DNA from: a virus
Lineage: Duplodnaviria > Heunggongvirae > Uroviricota > Caudoviricetes
IMG/VR virus record: IMGVR_UViG_2547132273_000019
Length of the DNA stretch: 4,947 nucleotides
Reading direction: 5' to 3' (one strand)
Shown here piece after piece: positions 2,386 to 4,947 of this stretch (positions within the stretch are counted from its first letter, which is position 1; each line of letters begins with the position of its first letter). A program made the position numbers and the translations under genes. The notes under the pieces were generated by a model. It saw nothing but the letters and a program-made list of their open reading frames with translations, searched no databases and was not told the DNA's origin.

Positions 2386-2787
2386 GTGGCAAAAGTTTTT
2401 ACACAAGAAGAGCGGGAAAAAATTAAAGGGCAGGTGGTGGAACTCGTGCGCCAGAGCGGTCGTGAGACGTTACGGCAACTGGAAGCTAAAACAGGTGCGA
2501 CTAGATATCTGATGAGCGTTCTTGCTAGAGAGCTGGTAGCCAGTGGCGATGTATACAACTCCGGCTACGGGTTATTCCCGTCTGAACAGGCGCGTAAGGA
2601 CTGGCAAAACGCCCGCAAAAAACTCTCGAGGGCAAAGGTGAAGAAACCTGCTGTGGTTGATCCGGACCTTATCTGGTCATTACCTGACGGAGAAATACGC
2701 CGCTACGACAGTCGTCTAAACATAATCTGCCGCGAGTGCCGGAAGAGTGAAGTTATGCAGCGCATACTGGCATTTTATCAGGGATAA
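2386..2787 (+). CDS. Hypothetical phage protein (133 aa), basic, possible winged-helix fold
   Basis: GTG start at 2386 with a strong Shine-Dalgarno AAGGGGG (2375-2381). It lies 40 nt after the replication gene stop and is probably co-transcribed. No recognisable catalytic motif. Stop TAA at 2785-2787. Confidence 0.6.
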   Translation: MAKVFTQEEREKIKGQVVELVRQSGRETLRQLEAKTGATRYLMSVLARELVASGDVYNSGYGLFPSEQARKDWQNARKKLSRAKVKKPAVVDPDLIWSLPDGEIRRYDSRLNIICRECRKSEVMQRILAFYQG

Positions 2788-2884
2788 TGTTAGGTATTTT
2801 AGACGTTACTAGATTAAAAAGCATTAGTTCAGGAGTGAATTGACATTCTCATTTTTCATGGCACAGGGTAGATCTGGCGTGGTT

Positions 2885-2908
2885 GTCCGCTTTGTGCCAA
2901 CAGCGGAC
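2885..2908. repeat. Inverted repeat GTCCGCT-N10-AGCGGAC (hairpin or protein-binding site), copy 1
   Basis: 7-bp perfect arms with a 10-nt spacer (ttgtgccaac). No U-tract follows, so it is not a canonical intrinsic terminator. The same arms and spacing recur at 4587-4609. Confidence 0.5.
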
Positions 2909-3074
2909 GTTACTAACGAAACTGTGAGTTAAAAACGGGAGCTGGTCACCTCCATCCCGCGAAATGGAATTCAAAAATGCCCTCATGTACGGTACTTCTA
3001 CTCTGATGTGAGCATTTTCGTGGATTTTTTCGAGCCACTCCAACGAATGATTACATTCAGTTTCGGGCACTAAA

Positions 3075-3090
3075 ACGTCATAACGTCATA
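3075..3090. repeat. Tandem direct repeat ACGTCATA x2
   Basis: Sequence aacgtcataacgtcata in the 540-bp spacer. Function unknown. Confidence 0.4.
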
Positions 3091-3276
3091 AATCCGCAAG
3101 TTGAGGAGTAGCGATCAGCCAATTGGTTAAAAAACAGCTTTAATTCCCTTTTTCAAGCAGGCTCCTTGTCGCACGTCTGGTGCATCCAATTCATTTCAGT
3201 TACCCTGATGCCATACTGGCACGGACTAGCTCTCTTAATTGGCGCTGGTTTGTTAACCTTGTCCGCTGTCGGGTCT

Positions 3277-3307
3277 TTGTAAGTTGTAATTCCTAAACTA
3301 GCATAAT
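3277..3307 (+). promoter_or_regulatory. Candidate own promoter for the RelA/SpoT-domain gene
   Basis: -35-like TTGTAA (3277-3282), about 19 nt spacer, -10-like CATAAT (3302-3307), then Shine-Dalgarno TAAGG (3315-3319) and ATG 3329. The spacer is slightly long; this is a weak call. Confidence 0.3.
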
Positions 3308-3328
3308 TTTATTATAAGGCCTCTTACT

Positions 3329-4354
3329 ATGCACATTTTATCTGTTTCAAAAAAGGAAGTTGGAAGAGCTGGGGATAGATTAGTTTCTCAGTTTGGTACA
3401 GGTGAAAAATATAAAGAGGAAGATGTACAAATTCTTCATGAGTGGAGGATGTTGCATTTATATCCTTTAAGTAAAATACAATTTTATATGGAAAGAGAGG
3501 CTATTTCCTTAAACAAAAATGCGTTACTATCCTCTAGAATTAAGAGGATGCCTTCCATTGTTACTAAGCTTTCTAGATTTCCTGATATGAAGTTAAATAA
3601 GATGCAGGATCTTGGTGGGTGCCGGGCTATTTTAAATAATCTGGATCAAGTGTATGATTTAGTTAATAAAATAAAATCATCTAAATTCTCACATGAACTA
3701 GTTAGAATGGATGATTACATGATAGACGTGAAAGATTCTGGTTATAGAAGCTTTCATATGGTCTATTCATTCCAAAATAAAAAATTTCCATCTTTAAATG
3801 GGTTGCGCATTGAAATGCAAATAAGAACAGCTATTCAACATAGCTGGGCTACAGCAGTTGAAATGGTTGGTTTGTTTCGAAAGGAATCATTGAAATCTGG
3901 TTTTGGTGATGCAAGATGGCTTAGGTTTTTTGAATTGGTATCAGAGCTTTTTTATAAACTTGAGTATGAAAAAGAACCATCTGGGAGTTATATAAAAATA
4001 TCAGAAGAATTAAGTTATTTATCCGTCGAGTTGAATGTTTTCGATATATTAGCTGCTTACAATGCCGTTGTTAGCCATATTGAGGGTAGCAAAAAATATG
4101 ATAAAGGACTTTGCATAATTGTTGTTGATACCATAAAGCGGAATATAAATATAAAGAGCTTCGAAAATCACAATCATGCGAAGGCGGCAGAAGCTTATGT
4201 CGAGTCTGAAAAATACTGCGCGGAAAATAAAGGCTGTGAAGTGGCTATGGTTTCTGTTAGTTCAATTAGTGAATTAAAAAATGCATATCCTGCTTACTTT
4301 TTAGATACGAAAACTTTTTTAAATTATCTCAGTAGGTATGTTTTTATAAAATAA
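3329..4354 (+). CDS. RelA/SpoT-domain nucleotide pyrophosphokinase (small alarmone synthetase-like) with a C-terminal extension; candidate toxSAS or fused toxin-antitoxin (CapRel-like) defence protein
   Basis: 341 aa. Synthetase-fold motifs in order: RIKRMPSIVTKLSR (R-x-K-x3-S-I-x2-K), QDLGGCRAIL, DDYMIDVKDSGYRSFHMVY (compare NGYQSIHTVV in RelA) and EMQIRTAIQHSWA (compare EIQIRT...H). About 115-150 residues follow the SAS core. Hand counts of sample 60-nt lines give about 23-30% G+C inside the gene against about 53% in the replication gene. Confidence 0.85.
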   Translation: MHILSVSKKEVGRAGDRLVSQFGTGEKYKEEDVQILHEWRMLHLYPLSKIQFYMEREAISLNKNALLSSRIKRMPSIVTKLSRFPDMKLNKMQDLGGCRAILNNLDQVYDLVNKIKSSKFSHELVRMDDYMIDVKDSGYRSFHMVYSFQNKKFPSLNGLRIEMQIRTAIQHSWATAVEMVGLFRKESLKSGFGDARWLRFFELVSELFYKLEYEKEPSGSYIKISEELSYLSVELNVFDILAAYNAVVSHIEGSKKYDKGLCIIVVDTIKRNINIKSFENHNHAKAAEAYVESEKYCAENKGCEVAMVSVSSISELKNAYPAYFLDTKTFLNYLSRYVFIK

Positions 4355-4586
4355 AAAATGTTTTCTGGAGTGGTCTGAATTCTACTAACTTAGTTTTTTC
4401 AGACCGCTTCTGACCACAATGGCCTGTGAGGTTCTGCTGCTAGTCAACATAAAATAACAAAGCCGGCAGGTGGTGGTTGTTGTAAAGTTATTCAATGACA
4501 TTCATGGAGGCTTAAGCGAATTATTTGTCCCTGGTCGGTATGGTGGCAACAGCTTGTTGCGAGAATTTGGCTAATTTGGACTGACT

Positions 4587-4609
4587 TCCGCTCCTTGCTC
4601 AAAGCGGAC
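4587..4609. repeat. Inverted repeat TCCGCT-N10-AGCGGAC, copy 2
   Basis: 6-bp arms plus a trailing C, 10-nt spacer (ccttgctcaa). Same arm sequence and spacing as 2885-2908. The two copies bracket the RelA/SpoT-domain gene. Confidence 0.5.
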
Positions 4610-4721
4610 TAGAAGGTTAGCTTGTGTCGGACTTTGCGTATTAAAAGAAGTGCTGGTGGTGACTAGTGGTTGAGCCCCATTTCCACAGAAAAAATCAGAG
4701 AAACTATACCCAATAGTTGTA

Positions 4722-4750
4722 TTGAATCACTGACGAGACAGCCTCATATT
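4722..4750 (+). promoter_or_regulatory. Candidate sigma70-like promoter upstream of the small ORF
   Basis: -35 TTGAAT (4722-4727), 17-nt spacer, -10 CATATT (4745-4750). A strong Shine-Dalgarno AGGAGG (4776-4781) follows. Confidence 0.3.
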
Positions 4751-4787
4751 CATCAGGACTGGTGTACGTCCAATACAGGAGGTTGTG

Positions 4788-4877
4788 GTGCTGGTTCTCA
4801 AATGTGCGCTGGCTATTACGGCTGTAATGGCGATTTATTGTCTTGCTATTGTTCTTATGGATCGCCTTTCTGACTGA
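4788..4877 (+). CDS. Candidate small hydrophobic membrane peptide (29 aa)
   Basis: GTG at 4788 lies 6 nt after AGGAGG (4776-4781). Hand translation gives (M)LVLKCALAITAVMAIYCLAIVLMDRLSD, a single predicted transmembrane helix with a charged tail; stop TGA at 4875-4877. It overlaps the track's 67-aa ORF (4670-4873) in another frame; which frame is expressed is unresolved. Confidence 0.3.
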   Translation: MLVLKCALAITAVMAIYCLAIVLMDRLSD

Positions 4878-4947
4878 TTTCATATTGGCGAGGTAAAGGT
4901 AGTTAAGTAGAATGGCTGCGGGTGCTTGAGGCTATCTGCCTCGGGCA

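Follow-up and report, generated by a model that had tools for sequence, protein, structure and literature searches.

The window analysed here, a 4,947-nt stretch of viral DNA (Caudoviricetes; IMG/VR record IMGVR_UViG_2547132273_000019), holds one gene of low G+C among ordinary phage genes, which raises the question of what this gene does and how it came to lie there. With a probability of roughly 0.78, this gene is by itself an anti-phage system of the fused CapRel type and sits as exchangeable cargo at a defence hotspot within a Qin-type lambdoid prophage.

Extent of the low-G+C block

The block was delimited by two-boundary maximum-likelihood segmentation of the window (lnL -3343.8, against -3379.2 unsegmented).

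3276 to 4399, unstranded: low-G+C block (about 32% G+C; the ORF and about 50 bp on either side), from segmentation, 60-nt lines and sliding windows

The preliminary description had reported a low-G+C island with abrupt borders restricted to one ORF, and this was borne out. G+C dropped from 45% in line 3241-3300 to 28% in line 3301-3360 on the left, and rose from 25% in line 4321-4380 to 47% in line 4381-4440 on the right. The ORF (3329-4354) had 32.6% G+C and the range 3285-4360 had 32.2%, compared with 45.9% in the remainder of the window; the sliding windows showed the deviation as well. The contrast had been overestimated, with 23-30% given for the inside, where the 60-nt lines actually span 23-43%, and about 53% for the O-like replication gene, which has 48.0% and reaches 55-57% in only two 200-nt sliding windows; the implied difference of about 25 points is in fact about 13-15. 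GC3, which served as the measure of codon bias in place of the codon adaptation index, was 0.27 in the ORF and 0.38-0.51 in five neighbouring genes.

Over 22.7 kb of this prophage as it occurs in strain 104 of E. coli, the CapRel-like gene was the kilobase of lowest G+C (32.4%), with a mean of 45.8% (sd 5.2%) in the other windows. A second low block (33.9% G+C) lies near gnsB in strain 104, so such islands are not unique within the prophage.

Identity and domains of the gene product

The following features were assigned to the ORF.

3329 to 4354, plus strand: 341-aa fused CapRel-family toxin-antitoxin gene (RelA/SpoT-domain protein), from Pfam, PADLOC, PDB and AF2/Foldseek
3521 to 3883, plus strand: toxSYNTH catalytic core, residues 65-185 (R70, R99, G-loop Y139), mapped onto CapRelSJ46
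4073 to 4261, plus strand: predicted pseudo-zinc-finger (antitoxin/sensor) domain, residues 249-311, from AF2 secondary structure and conservation
4286 to 4297, plus strand: YXXY autoinhibition motif Y320-P-A-Y323, aligned to CapRelSJ46 Y352/Y355

Sequence comparison and the modelled fold place the product, over its full length, in the family of CapRelSJ46 from Salmonella phage SJ46 (PDB 7ZTB/9ERV; Zhang et al. 2022, PMC9712102; 2024, PMC11578894). It matched Pfam RelA_SpoT (PF04607) at 4e-18 (66 bits, cut-off 27) and the PADLOC model PDC-S33 over its full length at 5e-119, with CapRelSJ46 scoring 7e-87 on the same model, likewise from end to end; a literature search on the name PDC-S33 and on the palindrome sequences described below returned nothing relevant. 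The best PDB sequence matches were 7ZTB and 9ERV (residues 6-338 against 15-370 of 7ZTB, E 2.6e-34), and BLASTP against the phage SJ46 CapRel gave E 5e-40 with 28% identity (28-32% across alignments). The AF2 model had a pLDDT of 88.4 and a pTM of 0.86. CapRelSJ46 was its best structural match in Foldseek (E 4e-19, TM 0.69 over about 350 columns), and RelP and RelQ matched the N-terminal half only (TMq 0.40). The product is annotated as WP_000547812.1 in a copy with 99.9% DNA identity, and a Shine-Dalgarno-like AAGG (3316-3319) lies upstream of the ATG at 3329.

The polypeptide is thereby predicted to combine an N-terminal RelA/SpoT-type pyrophosphokinase (toxSYNTH) with a C-terminal pseudo-zinc-finger domain (pseudo-ZFD) that ends in YXXY. 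Full-length alignment, AF2 and Foldseek place the pseudo-ZFD and helical anchors in the same ORF as the enzyme, with a predicted series of sensor-domain elements (E250-252, E260-267, E272-278, H283-299 and E303-310) and a C-terminal helix following the beta sheet and connecting helix. R79, R116, Y155, Y352 and Y355 of CapRelSJ46 map to R70, R99, Y139, Y320 and Y323, and Y320-P-A-Y323 aligns to Y352-P-N-Y355. In 70 homologues R70, R99 and Y139 were invariant, as was P321, and the positions of Y320 and Y323 held Y or F in all 70.

Mean identity among homologues was 56% in the catalytic core, 30% in the sensor and 50% in the C-terminal motif, which agrees with the pattern published for CapRel (PMC9712102). 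Conservation is lowest in the sensor domain, with 21% identity among distant homologues, and nt 628-900 of the gene had no DNA match to an E. coli homologue of 65% identity.

No separate antitoxin gene was found around the gene, where the small ORFs encode 20-38 aa and carry no annotation in the RefSeq copy. A 73-aa ORF on the minus strand (2849-3070) straddles the border of the cassette described below and is therefore not a conserved gene.

Transcription signals

A promoter of its own had been proposed for the gene, which the consensus scans did not support: neither a sigma-70 promoter upstream of 3329 nor a terminator after 4354 was found. The AT-rich 50 bp before the ATG contain the -10-like hexamers CATAAT (3302-3307) and TATTAT (3310-3315) without a -35, and an 8-bp inverted repeat (4372-4379/4398-4405) has no trailing T-run. 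The gene has odd composition and variable presence between conserved neighbours, as is typical of a phage 'moron'.

Proposed function

By analogy with its characterised relative, the CapRel-type fused toxin-antitoxin that the gene encodes most likely kills phage-infected cells. In the CapRelSJ46 experiments, the toxic N-terminal domain was neutralised by the C-terminal domain, phages were warded off, a phage protein activated the enzyme and tRNA CCA ends were pyrophosphorylated (PMC9712102). From 28-32% identity to this one characterised protein we infer toxicity, autoinhibition, protection, trigger and tRNA substrate here. In the lysogen, the C-terminal domain would fold back and its YXXY element would block the ATP site, leaving the protein harmless. 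When another phage infects, its major capsid protein or another abundant phage protein could bind the variable C-terminal domain and keep the enzyme open. The opened enzyme would then pyrophosphorylate tRNA 3' CCA ends, by which translation would halt and the infection abort, and the clonal lysogen population and the prophage would be protected.

With conservation of only about 20-30% in the sensor domain, the trigger is expected to be another one than in CapRelSJ46. Counting against the proposed function, four interface residues of importance in CapRelSJ46 are changed (A77 to S68, V338 to A306, L339 to M307 and A341 to S309). The gene represents an uncharacterised CapRel branch that shares about 30% identity with the studied protein and differs from it in the sensor domain, and the identity of its trigger would test how general the direct sensing of phage structural proteins is.

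Like CapRelSJ46, the window protein is encoded by a single ORF with toxSYNTH, helical anchors, a C-terminal pseudo-ZFD (predicted here), YXXY and the same catalytic Arg/Arg/Tyr, and it varies most in the sensor domain. Both genes belong to a temperate phage or prophage and are richer in AT than the phage around them. Unlike CapRelSJ46, the window protein is shorter by 32 residues and shows deletions in the loops of the anchor and the pseudo-ZFD, and it lies in a lambdoid Qin-type prophage slot and not in a P1-like phage-plasmid. Its catalytic domain is also homologous to that of the toxSAS PhRel/ATphRel of mycobacteriophage Phrann (gp29/gp30; tblastn 26.5% over residues 67-259). PhRel is prophage-encoded and acts against superinfecting phages (Jimmy et al. 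2020, PMC7229694). In such two-gene toxSAS toxin and antitoxin are separate genes, whereas the window protein is fused.

The protein might instead be a small alarmone synthetase, toxic or regulatory, whose product is (p)ppGpp or (pp)pApp and which poisons or reprogrammes the cell by way of its nucleotide pools, in the manner of FaRel-type toxSAS, as the catalytic domain has the generic RelA/SpoT synthetase fold, also matches RelQ, RelP and YjbM, and its choice of substrate is unreadable from sequence. This is unlikely, given that CapRelSJ46, a tRNA pyrophosphokinase by its PDB annotation, is the nearest full-length relative whether sequence, profile or fold is compared, and that NCBIfam GTP-diphosphokinase models gave 57.6 bits, far under their 320-bit cut-off. 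An ordinary alarmone synthetase of the RelQ/RelP/YjbM kind was rejected, as small alarmone synthetases match residues 67-177 only.

The slot between lygF and hokD

The gene lies in a Qin-type lambdoid prophage, with an O-like replication gene and lygF/DUF977 on the left and hokD-rem-Q on the right. Three features define its setting.

2386 to 2787, plus strand: lygF/DUF977, last conserved backbone gene left of the slot (Pfam DUF977 5e-28; LygF in related phages)
2900 to 4596, unstranded: exchangeable cassette, DNA present only with the CapRel-like gene, from homology breakpoints in four cargo variants
4885 to 4947, plus strand: start of the hokD/sok type I toxin-antitoxin locus, right backbone, from promoter scan, Rfam and strain 104 annotation

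The start of the hokD/sok locus has a promoter-like TTGGCG-17-TAGAAT and matches Rfam sok in part (4920-4947); hokD itself starts about 140 bp beyond the window.

Some part of the window matched 4,707 E. coli genomes, and the gene itself was present in 42 of 5,426 complete ones, with all copies at least 99% identical; its carriers include avian-pathogenic and human E. coli lineages. In the phages PhiR42_1, mEp460_ev081 and HannyBb, as in several E. coli prophages, unrelated cargo fills the slot between the same two flanks. The claim that a cargo gene lies between the replication module and downstream genes was thus supported, and alignment to related prophages, the check suggested for it, showed other cargo at the same site. 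Homology broke off at 2908-2913 and 4584-4597 in four independent cargo variants, the cassette ends border sequence shared with prophages of other cargo on both sides, and the left flank (2788-3328) was complete only in 41 gene-holding genomes. The exchanged unit is therefore about 1.7 kb, in which the low-G+C gene is accompanied by DNA of ordinary G+C (430 bp on its upstream side and 240 bp on its downstream side), and so is wider than the gene that was thought to have been inserted.

Neither the 5,426 complete E. coli genomes nor the viral contigs contained an empty site or an excision product, so the history of the site is one of replacement rather than simple insertion. The compact arrangement in BL21(DE3) was considered as a clean empty site and rejected, being a deletion equivalent to window 2683-4764.

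Other cargo with the same breakpoints comprised PD-T7-1 (4e-157), PDC-S39/DUF4209 (8e-103), a 340-aa unknown, a 195-aa unknown, and a methyltransferase with QueH. In viral contigs, about 23 distinct cassettes (60 loci) lay between the same borders, including AbiH, SIR2, GmrSD_N, Mrr and AAA_13, and their proteins matched the models LmuA/LmuB, ThsA, PD-T7-5, PD-T4-2_A, PDC-S06 and PDC-S25, while slot occupants of 340, 195, 269, 484 and 417 aa matched no known family. The slot between lygF and hokD is a defence hotspot, for which the literature search found no describing paper, and it offers many candidate defence genes of lambdoid prophages within a small space. It resembles the P2/P4 hotspots (PMC9122126, PMC13586616) in its fixed position between conserved phage genes and its large, fast-exchanged defence repertoire, and differs from them in being lambdoid (Qin/Rac type), flanked by lygF and hokD and bordered by a specific pair of palindromes; the P2/P4 hotspot paper makes no mention of hairpins, terminators or inverted repeats.

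The company of hok/sok, together with relBE directly upstream of hokD in the Qin prophage of K-12, could also suggest that the gene mainly serves addiction or stabilisation, or is a selfish toxin-antitoxin that keeps its prophage segment without an anti-phage role, since selfish persistence is possible for such modules. Differential decay of toxin and antitoxin is impossible in one fused polypeptide, though, the characterised family members defend against phages (PMC9712102), and the other slot occupants are mostly defence or defence-candidate genes, which makes this explanation very improbable.

Origin of the low G+C

A recent transfer from a low-G+C donor lineage could have left such an island, as the abrupt contrast with the neighbours, the GC3 of 27% and the rarity and near identity of the E. 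coli copies might suggest. However, homologues of 47-71% protein identity in E. coli, Serratia and Pectobacterium have 32-37% G+C against 45-55% in their flanks, and CapRelSJ46, at 28% identity, is likewise AT-rich (37%, with 55% for its phage). The low G+C is maintained by homologues in hosts of 50-55% G+C and therefore characterises the gene family as a whole, rather than being a donor fingerprint, an unameliorated relic or a sign of recent arrival. In addition, the closest relatives of the gene are themselves enterobacterial, and AT-richness is common to other slot occupants (PD-T7-1 36% G+C, the 340-aa protein 32%). A recent transfer from such a donor is accordingly improbable, and the composition that had been read as the signature of horizontal acquisition is better taken as a family trait. 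A plasmid-borne homologue had 38% G+C in surroundings of 41%.

Homologues were located in other mobile or defence contexts, namely a Q-holin moron slot, a Rop plasmid, a Serratia island and a Pectobacterium island with AbiEii. The nearest relatives match the gene at 79-80% in DNA, and this homology ends exactly at the ORF ends. The idea that the cassette flanks travel with the gene family was discarded, as none of the flanking DNA recurs beside homologues elsewhere, and the palindromes are absent there.

Palindromes at the cassette borders

Both borders of the cassette lie inside copies of a 24-bp palindrome, GTCCGCT-N10-AGCGGAC.

2885 to 2908, plus strand: left junction palindrome, L type, GTCCGCT-TTGTGCCAAC-AGCGGAC; DNA hairpin -8.4 kcal/mol
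4586 to 4609, plus strand: right junction palindrome, R type, TTCCGCT-CCTTGCTCAA-AGCGGAC; DNA hairpin -5.2 kcal/mol

The spacer is TTGTGCCANN in the L type and YYTCGCTCAA in the R type, and the L spacer TTGTGCCAAN includes the Rci crossover core GTGCCAA. No published description of this palindrome was found in the literature search. Among the matches listed, 78 L sites link 8 upstream to 26 downstream contexts and 92 R sites link 29 upstream to 7 downstream contexts. The palindrome marks the junctions of about 23 cassettes at the slot and also cassette arrays elsewhere in E. coli. The R+L double palindrome occurred in 635 of 5,426 E. coli genomes; the median number of places per genome was one and the maximum three.

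Known elements were compared and rejected. Dispersed palindromes of the REP/BIME type do not fit the low copy number (at most three places per E. coli genome), intrinsic terminators do not fit palindromes without a T-run, and no Rfam RNA matched at the palindromes. The arms and order of integron attC and shufflon sfx do not fit either, with two site types per cassette in the first case and only the 7-bp core GTGCCAA in common in the second. Simple circle integration at one site was also rejected, as L and R agree at only 2 of the 5 would-be overlap bases and thus are not hybrids of the same two parental sites.

The palindromes may be passive, for example as RNA stem-loops that end the lygF transcript and precede hok, while the swaps occur by homologous recombination in the long flanks and the breakpoints fall at the palindromes in appearance only. 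Relatives share 95-99% identity in these flanks, more than enough for recombination of the RecA or RecET type, a large exonuclease gene is present in the prophage (its product annotated as exodeoxyribonuclease VIII in a related phage), most palindrome sites have no linked recombinase, and the hairpins are only moderately stable. Such passivity has a real chance of being correct, somewhat short of an even one. It accounts poorly for one and the same cassette following upstream sequences that are unrelated to each other, its end lying at an identical point within the palindrome spacer, and for backbone alleles that reassort with cassettes down to 5-10 nt from the palindrome. Further against it, long slots consist of several cassettes in a row, with an R palindrome, 18 nt and an L palindrome between one cassette and the next; cassettes in a non-phage UPEC island are bounded by these palindromes as well; complete 24-bp palindromes also occur in other, distant phyla (among the matches listed); and the L or R type is set by the backbone side, not by the direction of the cargo gene.

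We tentatively propose, although the odds are against it, that the L and R palindromes are sites of a cassette-exchange system for which no prior description was found, in which genes bracketed by L and R would be moved or swapped as units with exchange inside the spacers. Such exchange could operate at the defence hotspots of lambdoid prophages as well as in chromosomal islands and the cassette arrays of distant phyla, and its agent could be a tyrosine recombinase of about 200 aa, an enzyme supplied in trans or a hairpin-dependent mechanism. A 202-aa tyrosine recombinase (Phage_integrase family) lies between the R and L sites in some arrays only; it was the only linked recombinase, no IntI-like integrase being linked. 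As a universal enzyme it was rejected, since it was absent from the 8-kb neighbourhoods of the 80 palindrome loci listed in other species. Compensatory changes between the cassette-borne half-sites were present in two cassettes (L036 and L062) and contradicted in others (L003, L099 and L072).

If the proposed exchange is true, the CapRel-like island would be one cassette of a new integron-like or 'dif-module'-like shuffling system, which would help to explain how defence genes reach phage hotspots. How defence systems enter hotspots in phages and islands is still treated as an open question (PMC13586616, discussion). The exchange borders map to a defined, widely conserved, low-copy element, so this question is directly testable at the lygF-hokD locus.

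Comparison with other cassette systems

On Acinetobacter plasmids, pdif modules are gene cassettes bounded by XerCD sites. Like pdif modules, integron attC cassettes, the sfx sites of the R64 shufflon (core GTGCCAA; PMC4176322) and the T4-type PeSL promoter/stem-loop cassettes (PMC2839356, PMC4122927), the window system has unrelated genes bracketed by copies of a short conserved palindrome, with the same cassette in different contexts and in tandem arrays. Unlike them, each cassette has two site types, not one, and the window sites do not fit the arms of attC (RYYYAAC...GTTRRRY), dif or sfx. Integrons further differ by their integron integrase, in place of which only the 202-aa recombinase of some arrays was seen, and PeSL by a promoter, which the window element does not include.

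The cryptic prophage Qin of K-12 belongs to the same prophage family and likewise has toxin-antitoxin cargo directly upstream of hokD. Unlike the window, it has lost the replication genes and lygF, and its relBE lies between one palindrome of the same family and hokD, not between L and R.

Composition and extent of the exchangeable segment

The low-G+C island that the preliminary description confined to one gene is real: sliding windows and direct counts agreed, and the block coincided with the ORF at 3329-4354 (+), which encodes a CapRel-like protein of 341 aa. G+C was 32.6% in this ORF against 45.9% in the remainder of the window, a deviation that was also present in the sliding-window check, and 32.2% across the range first proposed (3285-4360). 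With two boundaries fitted, the best edges were 3276 and 4399, which gained 35 log-likelihood units relative to an unsegmented window. Transitions were as abrupt as described, from 45% to 28% at the left and from 25% to 47% at the right, each inside one 60-nt line. The hand counts of 23-30% inside and about 53% in the replication gene were too strong, with 23 to 43% measured in the 60-nt lines of the island and 48% in the replication gene. GC3 was 27%, compared with 38-51% for five neighbouring genes. Across the whole prophage in E. coli strain 104, no kilobase had lower G+C than this gene (z ~ -2.6), although a second AT-rich block near gnsB (33.9%) was almost as low.

The position proposed for the cargo gene, between the replication module and downstream genes, was right, and alignment to related prophages revealed the same flanks with other cargo at the same site. 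The low-G+C gene itself was not the inserted unit, since the DNA occurring only together with it was wider than the island (2900-4596). The 541-bp left spacer was complete in only the 41 genomes holding the gene, its first ~120 bp being common to many other genomes. Homology broke at 2908-2913 and 4584-4597 in four independent cargo variants, and both breaks fell within a 24-bp palindrome. These cassette borders, outside the range first described, are the most interesting result.

Features of the locus
2885-2908, L palindrome at the left border, GTCCGCT-TTGTGCCAAC-AGCGGAC
4586-4609, R palindrome at the right border, TTCCGCT-CCTTGCTCAA-AGCGGAC
4785-4877, +, hydrophobic ORF of 30 aa (MVLVLKCALAITAVMAIYCLAIVLMDRLSD) in a conserved stretch upstream of hok
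4885-4947, 5' part of hok/sok; TTGGCG-17-TAGAAT resembles a promoter, and 4920-4947 partly matches Rfam sok

The motif CCGCT-N10-AGCGG occurred at two places only in the window, both of them borders, and in 0 of 200 shuffles.

Other cargo in the same slot

The slot between lygF (DUF977) and hokD held different genes in related phages. PhiR42_1 shared 1-2791 and 4900-4947 with the window and carried a methyltransferase with small ORFs; mEp460_ev081 shared 766-2911 and 4587-4947 and carried PD-T7-1 on the opposite strand (PADLOC 4e-157); HannyBb shared 766-2783 and 4745-4947 and carried a methyltransferase fragment with QueH. In E. coli prophages with near-identical backbones the occupant was a 340-aa unknown, a DUF7380/DUF4209 protein matching PADLOC PDC-S39 (8e-103), or a 195-aa unknown, and relBE lies directly upstream of hokD in K-12 Qin. 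PD-T7-1 (36% G+C) and the 340-aa gene (32%) were AT-rich as well; other occupants were not.

When 28 further cassette proteins were scanned with PADLOC, matches were obtained to PDC-S06, PD-T7-1, PD-T7-5, ThsA, AbiH, LmuA/LmuB, NsnA, PD-T4-2_A and PDC-S25, and Pfam matches among cassette proteins were AbiH, SIR2_2, GmrSD_N, Mrr_cat and AAA_13. Judged by eye from their sequences, other cassettes resemble transporters, regulators, IS elements or no-match proteins. Occupants of 340/356, 195, 269, 484 and 417 aa had no match in Pfam and/or PADLOC, and their position in the slot makes them candidates for new defence genes.

Occupants with no match
L006, 4200-5222
L036, 3773-4360
L049, L046 and L078, cassettes

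Many cassettes are interchangeable in this lambdoid prophage hotspot, the CapRel-like gene being one of them. Losses were also seen. In strain DAX4 (L005) the gene was reduced to its last 164 bp beside an IS3, which also removed immunity and replication genes. BL21(DE3) (L038) had a deletion equivalent to 2683-4764 of the window, with one end within lygF and the other shortly before hokD; it joins truncated lygF to the hokD upstream region, with the whole slot and both palindromes lost.

Palindromes at cassette junctions

Viral contigs were scanned for exact matches to the right flank, giving at least 120 stretches, 80 of which were made into loci. Among the matches listed, both borders were present in 60 loci with about 23 different cassettes of 0.84-6.7 kb, all of which began NN-AGCGGAC and ended GTCCGCT-YYT with occasional mismatches. 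The shared backbone contributed GTCCGCT-TTGTGCCA at the left and (C)GCTCAA-AGCGGAC at the right. Also among the matches listed, the L-type sites (n=78) combined 8 upstream with 26 downstream contexts, and the R-type sites (n=92) combined 29 upstream with 7 downstream contexts. A cassette found behind unrelated upstream DNA kept an identical end in the spacer, for example the PD-T7-1 cassette (L003/L090 versus L041) and that of a 326-aa protein (L041 versus L077). When two backbone alleles carried the same cassette, the last backbone difference lay 5-10 nt before the L palindrome and the first one 15 nt after the R palindrome. Long slots were arrays whose cassettes had between them an R palindrome, 18 nt and an L palindrome, or else an R and an L with a gene for a 202-aa tyrosine recombinase in the middle. 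Cargo genes lay on either strand, while the order of palindrome types was fixed. Loci carrying the palindromes were L003, L006, L035, L036, L039-L118, L159 and L161-L240.

The palindromes are low-copy conserved 7-N10-7 elements exactly at cassette junctions, and cassette-specific sequence starts and ends inside their spacers. Their geometry resembles that of tyrosine recombinase core sites, and the L spacer shares the crossover core GTGCCAA with shufflon sfx sites (PMC4176322), whose arms differ. L and R were considered as hybrids of one integration event and rejected, as their central bases are too different; exchange would therefore call for crossovers of L with L and of R with R (cassette exchange), or for recombination at the short shared palindromes. 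No empty site was found in complete E. coli genomes or viral contigs, which fits replacement. On a conservative view the palindromes might instead be passive structured elements, with cassettes swapped by homologous recombination in the long flanks, an explanation to which we give somewhat less than even odds. Integron attC arrays and pdif modules are known parallels to palindrome-bounded cassettes, and neither fits in detail. T4 PeSL cassettes (PMC2839356) are a further parallel of this kind, again without a fit in detail. No description printing the palindrome sequences was found in the searchable literature, and for P2/P4 hotspots a 2026 analysis still listed the transfer mechanism as unresolved (PMC13586616).

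Palindromes and recombinase beyond this prophage

Of 5,426 E. coli genomes, 912 had the 202-aa recombinase gene with flanking palindromes; its chromosomal position varied, and plasmids carried it too. In UPEC ABU 83972 and ATCC 25922 it lay in a non-phage island.

Recombinase and UPEC island
L041 and L078 (inside the slot) and L159 (9056-9664), 202-aa recombinase between R and L, Phage_integrase family, 'site-specific integrase', WP_001305361.1
UPEC island, one strand, first part: L, 366-aa gene, R, recombinase, L, ETEC_3214-family gene, R
UPEC island, rest: 269-aa gene, R-18 nt-L, TonB receptor with ABC iron-uptake operon, R

The R+L double palindrome was found in 635 E. coli genomes at a median of one place per genome; being low-copy, it was rejected as a REP-like repeat. 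A scan with CCGCTYTGTGCCANNRGCGGA, one genome per species, gave among the matches listed many Enterobacterales, and also Xanthobacteraceae, Pseudolabrys, Hyphomicrobiales, Nitrosomonadaceae, one Pseudomonas isolate and binned contigs assigned to Acidobacteriota and Actinomycetota. The three unspecified bases completing the 7-bp arms were present in 69 of 89 sites among the matches listed (chance 1 in 64). Alphaproteobacterial loci had up to 15 sites per 8 kb, where L-type sites alternated with sites of a second type, 45 nt away, whose spacer is TTGGGTCAAA. The small recombinase had no homologue inside the 8-kb palindrome loci of other species. Contexts and cassettes are reassorted, there are arrays, and distant phyla have the element too.

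In K-12 Qin (L007), palindromes of the same family at 5482-5505 and 6475-6494 bracket the ydfV-flxA segment, with relBE between one palindrome and hokD. Their opposite orientation relative to hokD suggests that this segment is an inverted cassette.

The CapRel-like protein

A RelA/SpoT synthetase domain covered residues 69-175 (Pfam 4e-18), and PADLOC PDC-S33, a candidate single-gene defence family, matched the full length (5e-119). CapRelSJ46, the characterised fused defence protein of Salmonella phage SJ46, matched the same model (7e-87), and its structures 7ZTB and 9ERV were the top matches among all PDB sequences (residues 6 to 338, E 2.6e-34), whereas housekeeping small alarmone synthetases aligned to residues 67-177 only. 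Identity to CapRelSJ46 was 28% (BLASTP), or 32% over 327 HMMER-aligned columns. An AlphaFold2 model built from 70 homologues was confident (pLDDT 88.4, pTM 0.86). The structures closest to it were CapRelSJ46 chains (E ~4e-19, TM 0.69, ~350 aligned columns), with RelP/RelQ covering its N-terminal half only. The rmsd to the CapRelSJ46 crystal structures was large (10-11 Å), which would be expected if the model is closed, because the crystals show the open state (PMC9712102).

Residues mapped in 7ZTB numbering, which reproduced those named in PMC9712102
R79 and R116 of CapRelSJ46 (ATP-coordinating): R70 and R99
Y155 (G-loop): Y139
Y352/Y355 (autoinhibitory): Y320/Y323

R70, R99, Y139 and P321 were invariant in the 70 homologues (34-86% identical), and positions 320 and 323 were Y or F in all 70. 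The catalytic core (56%) was the best-conserved part, followed by the C-terminal YXXY segment (50%), and the predicted pseudo-zinc-finger domain was the least conserved (30%, falling to 21% for distant members), the pattern from which Zhang et al. assigned phage specificity to that domain of CapRel (PMC9712102). Four interface residues differed conservatively from CapRelSJ46. No separate antitoxin ORF was found around the gene. On these similarities it is assigned to the CapRel-family fused toxin-antitoxins and is most likely an abortive-infection defence gene. The family is large, with 1,248 clusters at 50% identity (full-length matches at E <= 1e-30), and to this known kind the gene adds a new member that is uncharacterised.

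The gene's own promoter remains a proposal of the preliminary description; a consensus scan gave no sigma-70 promoter from 2700 to 3329, nor an intrinsic terminator downstream of 4354. The AT-rich 50 bp before the ATG contained -10-like CATAAT (3302-3307) and TATTAT (3310-3315) with no acceptable -35, and AAGG could be read 9 nt upstream of the ATG. The early-right operon is repressed in the lysogen, yet a defence gene has to be expressed there, so a promoter is expected within the 430 bp travelling with the gene.

Homologues in other settings

Homologues with 47-71% protein identity occurred in four other settings.

L008-L011 (E. coli), Q-holin moron slot of another lambdoid prophage
L012-L014 (Serratia), chromosomal island with three dCTP-deaminase-like genes and an HxsD/radical-SAM pair
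L015 (plasmid-like contig), small Rop-type plasmid
L283 (Pectobacterium), integrase-bounded island with AbiEii and DUF6119

Where the surroundings were of ordinary composition, homologues had 32-34% G+C against 45-52%; the CapRelSJ46 gene had 37% against 55%. Surroundings were AT-rich and contrast was little for the Rop-plasmid homologue (38% against 41%) and likewise for two short metagenome contigs. AT-richness is thus kept in every host and marks a mobile defence gene, not a particular donor; it may be kept up, for one, by selection that favours silencing a toxic gene. DNA similarity to the nearest relatives (79-80%) ran from the start codon to 5-9 bp before the ORF end, so the gene alone is the unit of descent. 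No junction palindromes flanked the homologues in these contexts, so the palindromes belong to the slot and not to the gene.

Prophage neighbourhood

A sequencing run had yielded the window as one complete contig of 4,947 bp, and its genomic context was taken from other assemblies. Strain 104 had the order integrase, xis, exonuclease, ydfD, dicB, cI-like repressor, cro-like, ydaT-like, O-like replication gene, lygF (DUF977), RelA/SpoT gene, hokD, rem, ydfU, Q-like antiterminator, lysis genes, terminase and portal, and its prophage adjoined rspAB, the site of cryptic prophage Qin in K-12. In all 31 contigs that were displayed or counted as similar, the identical protein had this same context. 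The gene was found in 42 of 5,426 complete E. coli genomes, one copy each, always chromosomal and at least 99% identical, with numerous poultry isolates among the hosts. Deposited phage genomes held no close relative, the best being CapRelSJ46 (28.5%).

The immunity region (85-765, with cI-like repressor at 173-580, operator region and cro-like start) was an allele different from that of most carriers' prophages and matched phage PhiR42_1 and locus L017, which shows that the immunity module is exchanged as a mosaic independently of the cargo slot. The replication ORF was called mechanically at 1326-2345 (TTG start at 1326, 339 aa), overlapping the ydaT-like gene; gene calls on the window contig (L034) and related loci gave 321 aa from 1380. 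Its product had no Pfam or NCBIfam match and is labelled O-like replication protein or primosomal protein I in phage records. The 30-aa ORF at 4785-4877 could be a small membrane peptide or chance, and hokD starts ~140 bp past the window end in related genomes. Strain 104 was nearly identical to the window from ~position 800 onward, apart from the 8-mer AACGTCAT, which is tandemly duplicated at 3074-3089 in the window and single-copy in strain 104.
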